Positions 1 through 6,370 of a stretch of 6,370 nucleotides of DNA are shown here, in pieces. The position numbers and the translations under genes were made by a program. The stretch is from a virus (lineage: Duplodnaviria > Heunggongvirae > Uroviricota > Caudoviricetes), in the IMG/VR virus record IMGVR_UViG_2778261687_000002, positions 1 through 6,370 of that record. One strand, 5' to 3'. The first letter of the stretch is position 1; each line of letters starts with the position of its first letter. The notes beneath the pieces were generated by a model. The model did not search any database. It was not told where the DNA came from and was given only the letters and a program-made list of their open reading frames with translations.

Positions 1-77
1 TGTTTTTGTCATGTGAGTCACCTCTGACTGAGAGTTTACTCACTTAGCCGCGTGTCCACTATTGCTGGGTAAGATCA
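1..77 (-). mobile_element. IS3-type insertion sequence, left end only (terminal inverted repeat, leader, first four codons of orfA); the element continues beyond the window start
   Basis: Reverse complement of 1..77 reads TGATCTTACCCAGCAATAGTGGACACGCGGCTAAGTGAGTAAACTCTCAGTCAGAGGTGACTCACATGACAAAAACA, which I recognise from memory as the IS3 left terminus (TG...CA-type end), followed by a GAGGTGA ribosome-binding site and ATG ACA AAA ACA (MTKT, the OrfA/InsE start) at 12..1 on the minus strand. Not verified by search. Confidence 0.75.
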
Positions 78-410
78 TGGATCGTACTTTAGGATATTTG
101 GGAAGTAGAATTGCTGTGAGCCATATGCGTCATACACAGCCATTGAATGACCTTCAACAGTTACAAATTTCGCAATTTGCCCGTTGTATACTGGATACCC
201 TCCAGCATTGATAACGATAGGCTGTGCAACAGGTATGTGCGTTCCATTTTCGTTTTCCAGATAAACCTGAATCTGGTTTTCAGGATTTACCGGGTCCGTG
301 TCAATTTTACCGATATAAATTTTGCCATTGGCTACGGCTTTAAAAGAACGAGCCATAGTGAAGAGTTGCGAAGGCATGCTTACTACAACATTAGCTGTAA
401 TGTCTGTCAT
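75..410 (-). pseudogene. P22-like tailspike, N-terminal head-binding domain only (111 aa), truncated by the IS3 end
   Basis: Translation [42 protein letters not shown]...LKYDP closely matches the P22 gp9 head-binding domain as I recall it. GGAG lies 8 nt upstream of the ATG at 410. The TGA stop at 77..75 is formed by the first three bases of the IS3 terminus. A full tailspike is about 650-700 aa. Confidence 0.85.
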
Positions 411-1246: not shown

Positions 1247-1741
1247 GTGTCTGATTCTATGAGTTACGCTGTGCTAGTTGCCGCAACTCTATTTATGGGG
1301 ATAGGGTTGCAGATTGCGTGGTTCTTTTTTTCTAGTTTTATTAAACGCAAAAGAATTGAATCAAGGATATCTGAGATTTCTATTGCTATAGGGAAAAATG
1401 CTGAAAATCCAGAGAATGAGGCCTGCGCACTGAATTACCTTAAAGAAAAGTTTTCCCCTGAAAAATTTGAAAATAGAATTACTGATGCTCTTGGATTGGT
1501 AATATCAGTAATTCATATGCCACTAAGTTTGCTGATAACAGTGTGGTACTTCGCCATGATCGCCGGAAGAATATTTGGTTTCATGAATATAGAGCCTGTA
1601 GTTCTTTGGGTTCCAATGATACTGCAACTGTTGTTAAGCGTTGCTATCTTTATTTTTTCTGTTTTTATAAAAATTGTCTTTGGAAGATACCCCGGAGAAG
1701 CTAAGGGATTTAATAAAGAATTCATAAAAACTATAAAATAA
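1247..1741 (+). CDS. AT-rich small inner-membrane protein (about 164 aa, three predicted transmembrane helices), in the sieA-equivalent position
   Basis: Strong ribosome-binding site TAAGGAGG at 1234..1241, 5 nt before an in-frame GTG at 1247 (the ATG at 1259 is an alternative start). Hydrophobic segments [45 protein letters not shown] and [31 protein letters not shown] content is visibly lower (about 35%) than the flanks. The ORF-track N-terminal extension from 1031 lies upstream of the ribosome-binding site and overlaps the HExxH gene. Confidence 0.7.
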
Positions 1742-1763
1742 ATGCCGTCCTTGGCTTACAGTG

Positions 1764-2912
1764 CTACTGCCGGGTCGCTTCGTTAGCTAAGAGCGGGCGC
1801 ACGGCAGTAGCAGCCTGATTTAGCGCTCTTTCATAAGCTGGCGTTCCAGCTTTAGTGTTTGCCAGACGTAAGAGCGCATTCCTTGCTGCTTTGGACTCAT
1901 ACAAACGCATCATTGCACCAAAACCAGCCTCAAGCCCCATTGATACTCCAAGAGTCGCAGTTGCGCCAATCGTCCTTATCCTGTTGGCTTGTGATTGCCC
2001 CGTCTGAGTTACTACATTTGCGGTGTCTGACCTTGCTGTTTGCTGTAGAACTTCATGAAGAGCATCAAGCTCTTTCATGTGCTTTCCAGAAAAAATAGTG
2101 TTGTAAATTTCACCGCCTGACTGAGATTTAAGCTTATTAACTTCAGTGATGAACTTGGCTGGAGAGTCACCGGCCTTTTCCGCTATTTTGCTGACGTAAG
2201 CTGCACGCATAGCATCTTTCCCTTTATCATCCAATGCGCTCCAGATTCGTTTCACGTCAGATGGTTTTCTGCTTAATACAACGGTATTTATAAGTTCAGG
2301 ACTGGCTTCACTGCTTGCCTTGTTGAGCTTGTTAGCAATGTTTTTATTAAGCACCTTATTATAAACGTTTGCATAATCGGAGTTTGCTTTAAGGTATTTT
2401 GCTGCGTCTGATGCACCAAGGTTTTTTGCAACTGCGTTACGAAGATCTTTTGACATTGCATTCTCTACCATATTGGTAGCTGCTTTTGCCTGGTTTGGGA
2501 AGACCATAGCATCTCCCTGAACATTAGATCTAAATGCTGTTCTGTGCTGACGCAAGAGATCAAACGTAACATCCAAATCAGTTGCAGGGTTTGCTAATTC
2601 TTCGCGTAGGTTACGCAAGGATGTAAGCAGACTTTGATTGGCAGACGTCCCAAGCCGTTCCTGTCTTGCGATCGCTGTATTCAGAGCATTCATGGTATTT
2701 GTGGTATCAACTGCGGCATTACCCATTTTATTGGTGACGTCATTGATAACAGCGCCAGCGGCATCCTTCCGCCCCCTTAACGTGGTGGTCAGAGATTTCA
2801 CCACATCATCAGGGTTGTACTCACCAAAACGGTCAAAATAATTGCTTACCAGCTTACTACGCGTTGCATATTGCTCCGCTCGCTTTGAGCCTGTCCCGAG
2901 CAAAGCCCCCTC
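1764..2912 (-). CDS. Phage virion/ejection-protein-like C-terminal region (Ala/Asn/Lys-rich; possibly P22 gp16-like by position), lacking its own start and fused in frame to the ninG fragment
   Basis: Long open frame with low-complexity, helical composition typical of phage injection or tail-associated proteins. No ATG with a ribosome-binding site; the ORF-track start at 2903 is a TTG inside a continuous frame that stays open up to 3143. The gp16-like assignment rests on synteny (next to the sieA-like gene and tailspike), not on recalled sequence identity. Confidence 0.45.
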
Positions 2913-3107
2913 GGCATCCCACTGAGCAGACGTGAGCGTTCCGCACGAGATACATGGTAAGTCGCGGTCTCTTTCTCTGATGAAGGCGTTTACGGCTTGT
3001 TGGGCTTGTTTAATCCAGTAACTGCGGGGCTTTAAGGCGAGTTTTCGAATCTTAAGTTTATCTTTCTGTTTCTGCTCCTCTCGTCGCCGTTTCTTCTCTG
3101 CTGCTTT
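2913..3107 (-). pseudogene. ninG: ninG (Rap-like) internal fragment, in frame with the downstream virion-protein-like ORF
   Basis: The same minus-strand frame translates as [65 protein letters not shown], matching lambda NinG as I recall it. Homology stops at ...AQWDA (lambda continues GHYR...) and there is a TGA just upstream at 3146..3144. Both N- and C-terminal parts of NinG are missing. Confidence 0.6.
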
Positions 3108-3421
3108 TCCCGATAGAGCATGATGATTGAGTCTGCGTCCTGCTCAATGCTTCCTGAATCACGCAAATCTGCGTTTGTCGGGCGTTTGTTTGGTCGCTTC
3201 TCAACATCGCGCGAAAGCTGACTCAGGGAGATAACAGGCGTTTTCAGGTCTTTCGCCATCGCCTTCAGGCTTCCTGAGATGTGAGCAATTGCGAGGTCGT
3301 TGCGGTCTGCTTTCGGCTTCTCAATCAGGCCAAGATAATCCGCCATGATGAGTGACAGGTTTGGATTTTCCTGTTTGTGCCGTTCTGCGATTGAGCGTAT
3401 TTCTTCGACCGATACCCAATG
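3032..3421 (-). pseudogene. DnaB-family replicative helicase, C-terminal fragment (P22 gene 12 / lambda P-region type)
   Basis: Minus-strand frame reads ...[33 protein letters not shown]...[63 protein letters not shown], which is the DnaB C-terminal signature region. The N-terminal roughly 300 aa (Walker motifs) are absent. After LYRE the frame diverges into the ninG sequence read out of frame ([24 protein letters not shown], stop). The ORF-track start at 3346 is an internal Met. Confidence 0.7.
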
Positions 3422-3571
3422 TCCGATAGCTCCCTGTGTGCATCCAACTGCCTTAAGCCTGAAGAAATGTTTCCTGTAATGGAAGATGGGAAATATGTCG
3501 ATAAATGGGCAATACGAACGACGGCAATGATTGCCAGAGAACTTGGTAAACAGAATAACAAGGCTGCCTGA
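3419..3571 (+). CDS. Small plus-strand ORF (50 aa from the ATG at 3419; 34 aa from the ATG at 3467), possibly the 3' remnant of a truncated gene
   Basis: [50 protein letters not shown]. No convincing ribosome-binding site. The TGA stop (3569..3571) sits in the loop of the hairpin terminator that follows. Below the ORF-track size cut-off. Confidence 0.25.
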
Positions 3572-3630: not shown

Positions 3631-3996
3631 ATGGAAGAACAAGCAAACAAGATTCTCGTAGAACTACTGCAAAAAGCCAGTAATGGAATAGACGCGGCTG
3701 TTTCATTTAGCCAGGCACAGATTCCTGATGTCATCCATCAGCTTTTGATGTGGCACGCCGTATCATCAGCTGGAATTCAGGCTATCTGTGTATTGGTGAT
3801 TATAGCGTGTGTTTATCTGATGATTTTTGCATGGAATAAAGGAGATGATGCGGATGTTGTTCTTTTATCGCTACTTGTAACATCAGGAATAGCGATTACT
3901 TCTATTGTTGTTTTCTTCAATTATTTCGACTGGCTGAAAATCTGGCTTGCTCCAAAACTTTACCTTATCGAATATGCAGCATCATTGGTTAAGTAA
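3631..3996 (+). CDS. Small membrane protein (121 aa, two predicted transmembrane helices), unknown function; superinfection-exclusion or holin-like candidate
   Basis: Ribosome-binding site AGGGG 4 nt before the ATG. Soluble N-terminal roughly 45 aa, then hydrophobic helices GIQAICVLVIIACVYLMIFAW and VVLLSLLVTSGIAITSIVVFFNYF. Followed by a clean terminator. Moderately AT-rich. Confidence 0.65.
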   Translation: MEEQANKILVELLQKASNGIDAAVSFSQAQIPDVIHQLLMWHAVSSAGIQAICVLVIIACVYLMIFAWNKGDDADVVLLSLLVTSGIAITSIVVFFNYFDWLKIWLAPKLYLIEYAASLVK

Positions 3997-4026: not shown

Positions 4027-4089
4027 GGCATAAACAACAGAATAAACACTGCACTGTGTATTCATTCCAACGAGTGAATATCTGAGGTT

Positions 4090-4293
4090 TTGAAACGCAC
4101 TGGCTATAGCAAGGCGTGGGTATATGCTCTGATGAGCCGAGGACAATTCCCTCAATCAGTCAAGATTGGTGCTCGCGCAATAGCTTTTATTGAAAGCGAG
4201 ATCGATGACTGGATCGATCAACGTATAGCCGAATCGCGTAGTAACAAAGAACAGAAACAAACCGGATACAAACAATACGTTATTAGGTATTAA
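4090..4293 (+). CDS. alpA: AlpA/Vis-family winged-helix DNA-binding protein (prophage regulatory protein / excisionase-like), apparently N-terminally shortened
   Basis: (ISEV)LKRTGYSKAWVYALMSRGQFPQSVKIGARAIAFIESEIDDWI matches the AlpA/P4 Vis pattern (..EV...TGLSRSTIY.L...G.FP.PVK.G.R.V.W...E...W). The only in-frame start after the TGA at 4075..4077 is the TTG at 4090; the usual leading residues of the family are missing. Confidence 0.6.
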   Translation: MKRTGYSKAWVYALMSRGQFPQSVKIGARAIAFIESEIDDWIDQRIAESRSNKEQKQTGYKQYVIRY

Positions 4294-4295
4294 GA

Positions 4296-4487
4296 ATGCA
4301 GTTGACCCCCACCAATCAAAAGCTGAACGTAACCCATGTTGATTTTGAGACCTTCGCGGAACTGATTAGATCAGATCCACAAAAGGTAAGCACCAGCACC
4401 TGGGTTTATGATGTGAAATCCACCAACGGTGGAAAAGCTATCGGCATTGTCTCTGGCGATGATTACTTAGTAATCGATCTGATTTAA
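4296..4487 (+). CDS. Hypothetical small protein (63 aa), translationally coupled to the alpA-like gene
   Basis: AGGT ribosome-binding site 7 nt before the ATG, which is 2 nt after the alpA-like stop. No recognisable motif. Confidence 0.5.
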   Translation: MQLTPTNQKLNVTHVDFETFAELIRSDPQKVSTSTWVYDVKSTNGGKAIGIVSGDDYLVIDLI

Positions 4488-4513
4488 TCACACAAAAATT
4501 GTAGAGTGATTTG

Positions 4514-4532
4514 GGAAGACAGGAAGTCTTCC
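4514..4532. promoter_or_regulatory. Perfect 7 bp inverted repeat with 5 nt spacer (GGAAGAC-AGGAA-GTCTTCC); candidate operator or weak terminator
   Basis: Seen directly in the intergenic region between the 63-aa ORF and the HTH gene, about 40 bp upstream of the ATG at 4570. No clean U-tract follows. Confidence 0.35.
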
Positions 4533-4569
4533 TCCGTATTGCATTTTGGTACAACAGTAAGGGAATAAA

Positions 4570-4764
4570 ATGATTAATTATCTGACCGCTAAAGACGCAG
4601 CAGAATATCTTGGTGTCTGTCTATCACGCTTCTATCAGTTAAAGCGATATATCCCCAGCTTTCCCCCCTATGTAAATCAGACCATCAATGGACGCAAGCG
4701 CAGAGTGTGGCTTGCCTCCAGCCTTGATCAATTTGCCGACAGATTTCTGGGGGGACGAAAATGA
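4570..4764 (+). CDS. Excisionase/AlpA-type helix-turn-helix (HTH_17-like) DNA-binding protein, 64 aa
   Basis: Ribosome-binding site AAGGGA 5 nt before the ATG. LTAKDAAEYLGVCLSRFYQLKR...GRKRRVWLASSLDQFADRF follows the Xis/AlpA winged-helix pattern (LT.keaAeyLGvs..t.Y.l......P.....G.r.rW....ld.w). Confidence 0.65.
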   Translation: MINYLTAKDAAEYLGVCLSRFYQLKRYIPSFPPYVNQTINGRKRRVWLASSLDQFADRFLGGRK

Positions 4765-5147
4765 GCACTCTTACACGTACTCAGGTCGCCGCAAATATAC
4801 GCGATAGCCTACTAAGTGGCAGGAAGCTTACCCCAAAGGAGTTTGATGACATATTAAGGAAAGCAGGAAATCACGAACGTAGTCGCGTTTTAACGCTGTT
4901 ACGCAACGATTGGGGAATTCCTGTTGAACAGTGTAAAACAGGGGCGTATCACGTCACAGAACGCAACTTAGAAGCATACCACAGCGATAAAGACGAAACA
5001 TTGAAGCTCTGGAGGACGAACGCCAGATATGTAAAGACATTGCGTAAGGTAAACATAACGTTGTCGTTGTTGCGTGGGCTGGTGGGCAAAGTGCCTGAAG
5101 ACACGCTTAGAACTATTTACAAGGGTATTGAAACCAAATACCTGTGA
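4761..5147 (+). CDS. Hypothetical protein (128 aa), translationally coupled (ATGA overlap) to the upstream HTH gene
   Basis: Start ATG overlaps the upstream stop (ATGA at 4761..4764). GGGGGA ribosome-binding site 5 nt upstream. No motif recognised. Confidence 0.6.
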   Translation: MSTLTRTQVAANIRDSLLSGRKLTPKEFDDILRKAGNHERSRVLTLLRNDWGIPVEQCKTGAYHVTERNLEAYHSDKDETLKLWRTNARYVKTLRKVNITLSLLRGLVGKVPEDTLRTIYKGIETKYL

Positions 5148-5159
5148 TTGACAAAGTAG

Positions 5160-5186
5160 AAAGCCGACTTTGCGAGAGTCGGCTTT
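5160..5186 (+). terminator. Strong hairpin (10 bp stem AAAGCCGACT / AGTCGGCTTT, 7 nt loop) just after the 128-aa ORF; candidate terminator, possibly bidirectional
   Basis: Perfect 10 bp stem seen directly. The U-tract is only 3 nt, contributed by the stem arm. A TTGACA hexamer at 5148..5153 immediately precedes it. Confidence 0.45.
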
Positions 5187-5215
5187 GAATCAATTGAAAT
5201 ATATGAATTTTACAC

Positions 5216-6268
5216 ATGGAATTATACGATAAAGACGCGAGTCTATCCACAAAATCACAAGCCGTAATCAATCGCATCAATGGTCGAACCTTAGCTTATG
5301 TGAAATCAGTTAAGTACAAACGTAATGAATTAAAGGCGGAGAATAAACGACAATCATCAAAGGCTAACCACTGCATACCACCAGCCTGGACAAAGAGGAA
5401 ATGGCGTACAATGAGGCGAGCTTTGTTTACTCTGGATGTCGAATCAACTAGTGGTATCCCCTACTCCTTTACCTTCAGACCCGTTAAGGGAACAACGCCA
5501 GAGAAATTCAACAAAGCGTTAAAGGCACTTACCAGATGGTTGACTTCGAAAGGCAATCAGTGGGTTTACGTCATGGAGTGGGCTCGACACCAGTCAGAGC
5601 CGCATGTACACGCAATAATCATGGTGAACGAAAGAAGCATTAATGGGCAAGCTGGCAAAATTGTCAGCAAATGGGTAACACTGGCAAACAATGCAATCCC
5701 ATCAAATGTTCCTCCTCAGTGGGATCTAGATTTGAAAGGTCAGCAATATTCAGAGCCTACAAAGTGTATAGGTAAACAGATTGATTACATGGCAAAGCCC
5801 GAAACTAAGTTAAATGACTTTAATAGAGAGGCGAGCAAGAGCCTATATGATTGGTCAGATGCCACCGTTTGGGGTTATTCGAATGGCTGGGCGCGGCATG
5901 AGATAAAAAAAGAAACACTTTCTATCACTGGCTTTCATGCTGTAAGACGCATACTAAAAGCCATTCAGGCATCAAGGAAAGACAACTACAAAGTTAAGCG
6001 ACAGATACAGCGTACATTGAAACGACAAGACATAAATCGCTCACCAATCACCCCATTCCAAGCACCGTTAATTAGCAAACACGATTGGGATTTATCAGTG
6101 ATAGCGGTCACCAAAGAGGCAGAGACAGAGCGCAGGGAGTTACTATCCTCACAGATAATAAACTCGAACAAAGTACAAACCTACCCGCTGTTAAGGATGT
6201 TAAGAAAAGCACGAGTGAGAGCATCAAGAGCCAGAAGAGAAAGCGGAGGTTATGACCTTTACTACTAG
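5216..6268 (+). CDS. Putative HUH-type rolling-circle replication initiator (Rep), 350 aa; compare inovirus gene II-like or CP4-57 YfjI-like proteins found next to alpA
   Basis: Long ORF with motif I-like FTLD (aa 71-74), HUH motif EPHVHAIIMV (aa 128-137) and a YxxK tyrosine motif QIDYMAKPETK (aa 188-198), each about 59 aa apart, with a basic C-terminal tail. No ribosome-binding site before the ATG at 5216, so the start is uncertain. Function inferred from motifs only. Confidence 0.5.
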   Translation: MELYDKDASLSTKSQAVINRINGRTLAYVKSVKYKRNELKAENKRQSSKANHCIPPAWTKRKWRTMRRALFTLDVESTSGIPYSFTFRPVKGTTPEKFNKALKALTRWLTSKGNQWVYVMEWARHQSEPHVHAIIMVNERSINGQAGKIVSKWVTLANNAIPSNVPPQWDLDLKGQQYSEPTKCIGKQIDYMAKPETKLNDFNREASKSLYDWSDATVWGYSNGWARHEIKKETLSITGFHAVRRILKAIQASRKDNYKVKRQIQRTLKRQDINRSPITPFQAPLISKHDWDLSVIAVTKEAETERRELLSSQIINSNKVQTYPLLRMLRKARVRASRARRESGGYDLYY

Positions 6269-6370
6269 TAGTGACAGATCGTGACAAGGCTGTGGCTTTG
6301 TTGAATAAATCAGATTTCGGGTAAGTCTCCCCCGTAGCGGGTTGTGTTTTCAGGCAATACGCACGCTTTC

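Follow-up and report, generated by a model that had tools for sequence, protein, structure and literature searches.

The stretch of DNA analysed here (hereafter the window) is an entire 6,370-bp contig, NLGV01000072.1, of the E. coli assembly GCA_002226155.1, and is bounded by IS3 on one side and IS903B on the other. Nucleotides 1..77 comprise the terminal 77 nt of an IS3 copy with its left inverted repeat, in inverted orientation on the minus strand, which cuts the tailspike gene short at this end of the contig. The terminus is assigned to IS3 by its sequence; database matches to positions 1 to ~77 carry an IS3-family transposase annotation, and in relatives with an intact tailspike gene (L008 and L013) identity with the window ends at position 78. 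The other contig end (6294..6370) is the end of an IS903B-type element of the IS5 family; the matching sequence in H10 carries an IS903B annotation, and identity to the relatives ends at position 6293. Next to the IS3 terminus lies the head-binding domain of a tailspike, represented by its first 111 codons only (75..410, minus strand; Pfam Head_binding, 1.7e-65, profile positions 1–111 of 113). The tailspike found at the same position in the relatives is 722 aa long; the window copy is cut by IS3 after codon 111. It is followed on the plus strand by an apparently intact sieA-like superinfection-exclusion gene of 164 aa (1247..1741), which is 92% identical to P22 SieA over aa 1–164; PF26849 SIEA is assigned to the called sieA-like gene in L007 and L008.

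Positions 1764..2919 of the minus strand encode a C-terminal fragment, ~385 of 612 codons, of the DNA transfer (ejection) protein gp16 (denoted gp16'), as identified by blastn, tblastn and PF26808. Positions 79–2919, P22-like late/immI DNA, align without gaps and at 96.3% identity to the arm from tailspike to gene 16 in an intact P22-like prophage (L002), whose gp16 is 612 aa long, and in a tblastn comparison with P22 proteins aa 231–609 of P22 gp16 align at 2915–1767. The initial annotation had described this region as a 380-aa virion or ejection-like sequence related to gp16 or gp20: the gp16 assignment holds, the gp20 assignment does not. Nor is it a complete protein of its own, since it corresponds to aa 228–612 of the 612-aa gp16 and is far shorter than the ~590–650 aa of an intact copy. 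Genes for gp7 and gp20, which normally precede gp16 in the late operon, are absent beside it. The closest relatives of gp16' are alleles of E. coli prophages, at 96–100% identity; against P22 gp16 the value is only 75%. The assignment to PF26808 (Phage_P22_gp16) rests on precomputed hits and on the alignment to P22 gp16; the local Pfam search did not report this family for gp16'. Gene callers give gp16' as a 379-aa ORF starting at a TTG at position 2903, with a Shine-Dalgarno (SD)-like GAGGGGG 5 nt upstream.

Adjoining gp16' on the same strand is an internal fragment of ninG (2912..3112), codons ~49–115 of 204, which is 99% identical to lambda DNA (J02459, 42574–42774) and corresponds by blastn to nt 146–346 of lambda ninG. 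The NinG Pfam match (2.6e-27) covers profile positions 44–109 of 193, the alignment to P22 NinG reaches aa 114 at window position 2913 (tblastn), and both the N- and the C-terminal parts are missing, such that no full-length NinG/Rap structure-specific endonuclease (PF05766) with its own start is present. Next comes an internal fragment of a DnaB-type replicative helicase gene (3107..3417, minus strand), codons ~287–390 of 458, which is 99.4% identical to the helicase gene of the L003 prophage; aa 288–390 of P22 gp12 match 3415–3107 at 96% (tblastn). Its DnaB_C match (8.3e-33) spans profile positions 135–222 of 255 and the N-terminal domain is absent; a complete DnaB-type helicase (PF00772 plus PF03796) is therefore not encoded. 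In the minus-frame translation the helicase sequence runs to ...DSIIMLYRE and is followed by 25 out-of-frame codons up to a stop at 3032. The resulting 104-aa helicase::ninG ORF spans 3032–3346 and is deposited only as a 'hypothetical protein'.

Two further pieces, beyond those noticed in the initial annotation, are a cro fragment and the 3' end of ral. The former is a 41-nt fragment of a cro-type HTH regulator gene (3415..3455, minus strand), in frame with the helicase fragment; it matches with 100% identity over the 41 nt the gene at the cro position of the E. coli ATCC 11775 prophage (L149, 3392–3607). The latter (3453..3571, plus strand) extends from ~codon 28 to the stop, is 99% identical to L005 and L006 from ral nt ~83 onwards, covers positions 24–66 of the 66-position Ral Pfam profile, and aligns to aa 28–60 of P22 Ral. 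It is followed by an intact 121-aa gene of the early-left operon of lambdoid and P22-like prophages (3631..3996, plus strand; exact protein match), and the identical protein is encoded between ral/N and cIII in many intact prophages. The remainder of the window (4079..6293, plus strand) is a separate island with genes for an AlpA-like regulator and a rolling-circle Rep as well as small ORFs. Its identity to L001 9274–11488 is 97.6%, and it has Pfam matches to Phage_AlpA (8e-15) and REP_ORF2-G2P (1.8e-6).

The structure between positions 78 and 6293 is shared at 99.98–100% identity by at least 13 independent contigs from NCBI, ENA and Logan assemblies, one of which is a 2.0-Mb contig; GCA_019958005.1 is a further carrier assembly. 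Carrier contigs extend on one side into mlaA-yfdC-intS-gtr-tailspike and on the other into the AlpA/rolling-circle-Rep island, a reverse transcriptase/PRTase pair, a serine recombinase and then dsdC-dsdX, which places the integration between yfdC/argW and dsdC, with an IntS-type integrase gene beside argW; L001, a related locus, has argW annotated in the interval from yfdC to intS. Kapi1, Sf6, HK620 and the K-12 cryptic prophage KplE1 (CPS-53) share this argW-dsdC attachment site, with int adjoining yfdC, and the locus is described as hypervariable, with abundant phage debris (PMC8787464). The window thus holds a defective P22-like (Lederbergvirus-type) prophage from which the head, terminase, lysis, replication and immunity functions are missing and in which ~24 kb are absent on the P22 scale. 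Like KplE1, this remnant has kept the P22-like tailspike, gtr, sieA and ejection-protein arm and is defective after loss of the morphogenesis genes. Unlike the KplE1 group, it has other end points, retains only islands of 41–310 nt from cro, the helicase gene and ninG, abuts the AlpA-like regulator/rolling-circle Rep island (accompanied by the reverse transcriptase/PRTase pair in the relatives), and carries IS3 in the tailspike gene of the window contig.

The fragments occur in the order tailspike - sieA - gp16' - ninG' - gp12' - cro' - ral', which is the order and orientation of the P22 map (primes denote fragments). Every fragment of genes 16, ninG, 12, cro and ral aligns in this order, and none of these genes is complete. 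The gp16'/ninG' join lies at 2912–2919 and has an 8-bp microhomology, GGATGCCG, plus CTCAG just upstream (identity over 13 of about 16 positions). The ninG'/helicase' join at 3107–3108 has 2 bp of microhomology and is out of frame, the helicase'/cro' join at ~3415–3417 has 0–3 bp and is in frame, and the cro'/ral' join at 3453–3455 has 3 bp; a fifth join, between the early-left arm and the neighbouring island, lies at 4079–4080 with 2 bp. Filler DNA is absent at all five. These positions bear out the initial annotation, which had the helicase sequence running into ninG out of frame near 3105..3110 (placed at 3107/3108 by translations and blastn) and the ninG frame continuing open from 3143 to 1764 with NinG similarity lost at ~2913; the NinG-like stretch does align to NinG, with the 99% match to lambda. 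It had also postulated at least two large deletions of a P22-type genome. The collinear fragments agree with this: on the P22 scale, ~17.5 kb (the 3' part of ninG, Q, the lysis, head and tail genes, and the 5' part of gene 16) and ~1.7 kb (the 3' end of the helicase gene through the 5' part of ninG) are missing, and two more deletions of ~2.3 kb each flank the 41-nt cro fragment.

The most conspicuous product of these joins is a minus-strand frame that runs open from 3143 down to its stop codon at 1764 and in which NinG sequence is followed by uninterrupted gp16 sequence. The ninG-gp16 join is in frame because both genes read GGATGCCG, which encodes Asp-Ala, in an identical codon phase. The fused frame contains no ATG, GTG or TTG from the stop at 3144–3146 down to the TTG at 2903 (minus frame), and this sole candidate start falls beyond the fusion point. 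According to the initial annotation, no piece has an ATG with a ribosome-binding site; an ATG is indeed lacking, but the TTG at 2903 is preceded by the GAGGGGG motif. A sigma-70-like promoter site was not found on the minus strand between 1600 and 4200, a consensus scan being weak evidence, and the upstream neighbours (ral', the 121-aa gene and the island) are all on the opposite strand. Thus the fused frame has at its 5' end neither a start codon with a ribosome-binding site nor a promoter or operon context. In loci from NCBI-annotated assemblies (L047, L051 and L054) no gene is listed over the gp16' ORF, and a gp16 remnant in a related genome is flagged as an incomplete pseudogene. With neither a start ahead of the TTG at 2903 nor an upstream promoter, the fusion is presumably not made as a protein, and the NinG-gp16 open frame would be a by-product. 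At most, a C-terminal fragment of gp16 could be translated from read-through RNA. Judged from sequence, the fused fragments appear to be dead scars, that is, an ordinary pseudogene and not a new protein.

The upstream end of gp16' was compared among the loci that encode the exact 379-aa ORF. This ORF has three upstream partners, with joins that fall within 2 nt of each other, 13–16 nt upstream of the TTG. The partner is ninG in the window, L008, L012 and L013, and truncated dsdX in L007, L010 and L011, which represent a sister clone (1 SNP in 11 kb) that differs from the window type by a 9.5-kb deletion ending exactly at the old junction. In L009, a different prophage at the ybhC-bioA locus whose gp16' differs by 15 synonymous changes, the partner is an inverted lambda-type Q fragment. 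A look-up by exact ORF favours lesions that lie at most 72 nt upstream of the TTG, and even inside this 72-nt interval the coincidence of breakpoints has P ~0.003; the L007 case is outside the bias. The site in gene 16 (~2916–2919, CAGG/ATGCCGAGG) may conceivably be a sequence-specific hot spot of illegitimate recombination or template switching in P22-like prophages, although we consider this rather improbable. It is intact in 122 of 122 other contigs (31 metagenome and 91 viral), and in a spread sample of 733 matching complete-genome records mosaic gp16 boundaries were found at nt 145, 390, 546–561 and 1278, with none at ~nt 684. A search of 5,426 complete RefSeq E. coli genomes yielded none of the three types of junction, and two scans of species-representative genomes gave no match.

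Three candidate determinants of breakage at this position were considered, of which the first two are rejected. DNA at the gp16 break folds no better than shuffled sequences (z −0.1 to −1.0), which speaks against a hairpin or cruciform; neither an exact nor a one-mismatch Chi site is found in 1700–3200; and self-targeting by a type I-E CRISPR system is unlikely, the ATG PAM-like triplet ahead of the retained sequence and the putative protospacer being intact in all three products. As a separate observation, a helicase' ORF (P0165, 115 aa) shares the ...LYRE end and then continues into N-leader sequence instead of ninG, a possible second case of recurrence; DNA of this fusion type was matched neither by a chimeric sequence used as query nor by a degenerate pattern for the junction.

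The junctions demonstrate illegitimate recombination at short homologies, and we regard it as very probable that the whole region consists of non-functional scars of a decayed P22-like prophage of the Sf6/HK620/Kapi1/KplE1 type at argW-dsdC, generated by microhomology-mediated illegitimate recombination. Such recombination would have removed ~24 kb, from ral to the middle of gene 16, and left three collinear islands, cro' (41 nt), helicase' (~310 nt) and ninG' (~200 nt). That the junctions are artefacts of a short-read draft assembly is exceedingly improbable: the window is admittedly a 6.4-kb draft contig between IS elements, but the same structure recurs in the independently assembled contigs described above, including the 2.0-Mb one. 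The four junctions from gp16' to ral' may well stem from one replication-based event with multiple template switches (MMBIR/FoSTeS-like), a reading that we favour over four separate deletions. It is the tiny size of the retained islands that favours such a single event: under random breakpoints, three islands all of ≤311 bp have P ~2.4e-4. A contig that has one of the four junctions always has the other three, and intermediates with a subset of them were not found in the gene-position index or in the 5,426 complete RefSeq E. coli genomes; this is weak evidence because the carriers are one clone (0–1 SNP in 6–11 kb). A similar signature is seen in the independent remnant L009, where a 335-bp inverted Q fragment lies between two junctions. 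Alternatively, four (or five) simple short-homology deletions may have followed one another, with the small islands reflecting coincidence or prolonged erosion. Successive deletion is the textbook expectation for prophage decay, remnants at comparable loci (L001, L006 and L157) show single simple deletions with differing end points, and a further simple deletion, that of 9.5 kb, happened in the sister clone. Weighed against the improbability of such small islands (41, ~310 and ~200 bp) in a span of ~24 kb and against the missing intermediates, such a series seems to us somewhat unlikely. Order and orientation do not separate the two, since serial deletions likewise preserve both and all window segments are direct.

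A quite different reading is that gp16' is a domesticated gene, expressed from the TTG at 2903 and under selection, for example as a decoy against DNA ejection by related phages beside sieA. The correct spacing of the SD-like motif from the TTG fits this proposal, as does the persistence of the exact ORF in three junction contexts, each of which spares the SD by 2–3 nt. Furthermore, sieA, the gtr genes and the tailspike side have been kept alongside, and several unrelated remnants keep ejection-protein genes and lose head, lysis and replication genes. However, selection for expression would allow any upstream end point and leaves the 2-nt precision unexplained, a promoter-like site was not found upstream, and the three contexts have no upstream sequence in common. 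In the 85%-identical gp16 allele P0118, the Leu encoded by the TTG is replaced by Ile. Purifying selection is not measurable from carriers that are clonal (0–1 SNP), and the bias of the exact-ORF look-up towards lesions ≤72 nt upstream of the TTG is illustrated by the nonsense mutation in L014 and the frameshift in L015. We therefore consider domestication of gp16' very unlikely and retain the interpretation as scars.

Complex rearrangements have reportedly been attributed to microhomology-mediated break-induced replication or fork stalling and template switching (MMBIR/FoSTeS; Hastings et al. 2009), and junctions of E. coli amplifications are reported as related examples (Slack et al. 2006). 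The window resembles these in its clustered junctions with 0–8 bp of microhomology and in its templated segments of tens to hundreds of bp, and an inverted segment is present in the independent L009 example. It differs in that all its segments are in direct order and orientation, as simple deletions also give, and the mechanism is read from the anatomy of the junctions only. Adjacent deletions mediated by insertion sequences, and deletions associated with their excision, produce nested rearrangements with one fixed end point. The fixed gp16 site in the L007, L008 and L009 types is reminiscent of this, and IS3 and IS903B are active in the lineage, but neither an IS nor an IS remnant is found at any junction, and the 8-bp homology of the ninG-gp16 join is typical of direct short-homology recombination. 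An IS-mediated origin of the junctions is accordingly unlikely.

Taken together, what the window contains is a decayed prophage of an ordinary sort, at a locus well known to be hypervariable. As a gene it is unimportant: it is a pseudogene scar as expected in any E. coli genome. It provides a worked example of how prophage debris comes to be reported by gene callers as chimeric 'hypothetical' ORFs, here the 104-aa helicase::ninG and the 379-aa gp16' ORFs. The tiny collinear islands joined by microhomology suggest that a one-step, complex, replication-based inactivation of a prophage is possible. The repeated use of one breakpoint, if confirmed population-wide, would be of modest interest for genome rearrangement and prophage domestication. 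If the site in gene 16 is truly a hot spot, the decay of prophages would not be random but would in part be channelled through specific break or landing sites.

In three different genomes, the C-terminal gp16 fragment is joined to three different partners at a single breakpoint lying 13-16 nt upstream of the internal TTG codon at window position 2903. In the window itself, the gp16 sequence passes into ninG through an 8-bp microhomology (2912-2919). In the sister clone L007, which differs by 1 SNP in 11 kb, the same sequence is joined to a truncated dsdX gene through a 4-bp microhomology (L007 9985-9988), and at another chromosomal locus, in the prophage remnant L009, it is joined to an inverted lambda-type Q gene fragment through a 2-bp microhomology (L009 9987-9988). 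All three junctions could have been made by crossing over at one and the same AT dinucleotide. The gp16 breakpoint may be a recombination hot spot.

L009 is an independent P22-like remnant residing at the ybhC-bioA (lambda att) locus. Its inverted Q fragment of 335 bp (L009 9654-9988) lies between the start of the replication gene and the gp16 fragment, and is flanked by junction overlaps of 8 bp and 2 bp. The inversion together with these short overlaps is a template-switch-like signature.

Re-use of a breakpoint would have a second instance at the end of the DnaB-type helicase fragment. The 115-residue protein P0165, which falls into the same 90% cluster as the helicase-ninG open reading frame of the window (3032-3346, minus strand), is identical to the helicase portion as far as ...DSIIMLYRE. 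Thereafter, the protein sequence does not enter ninG but runs on into an N-type antiterminator leader, which is read in sense and is therefore inverted. In the window, the helicase and ral fragments are separated by 41 nt of a cro-type HTH regulator gene (3415-3455), which read in frame with the helicase fragment. The region therefore carries four deletions and not two, the minimum proposed in the initial annotation.

The window comprises a whole draft contig, with the end of an IS3 element on one side (1-77) and the end of an IS903B element on the other (6294-6370). The IS3 element interrupts the tailspike gene after codon 111; in relatives devoid of IS3, the gene encodes 722 residues including a GDSL-lipase-like domain. 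A small separate island (window 4079-6293; L008 2108-7688) adjoins the prophage remnant and encodes an AlpA-like regulator and a 350-residue rolling-circle Rep (REP_ORF2-G2P), which in L008, a carrier of the window-type structure, is cut to 230 residues by a single SNP (window ~5906). In relatives, a reverse transcriptase (RVT_1) paired with a PRTase-CE protein comes next, an arrangement resembling a retron-type defence; a serine recombinase adjoining dsdC is also present there.

Three further E. coli remnants, L006 (5712-7118), L157 (1-4797) and L001 (7174-7680), have independently lost the whole segment that separates the ejection-protein genes from the early-left (ral) region. Tailspike, sieA and ejection genes are retained, and the end points differ in each case. 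The survival of these parts of P22-like prophages is a recurrent pattern.
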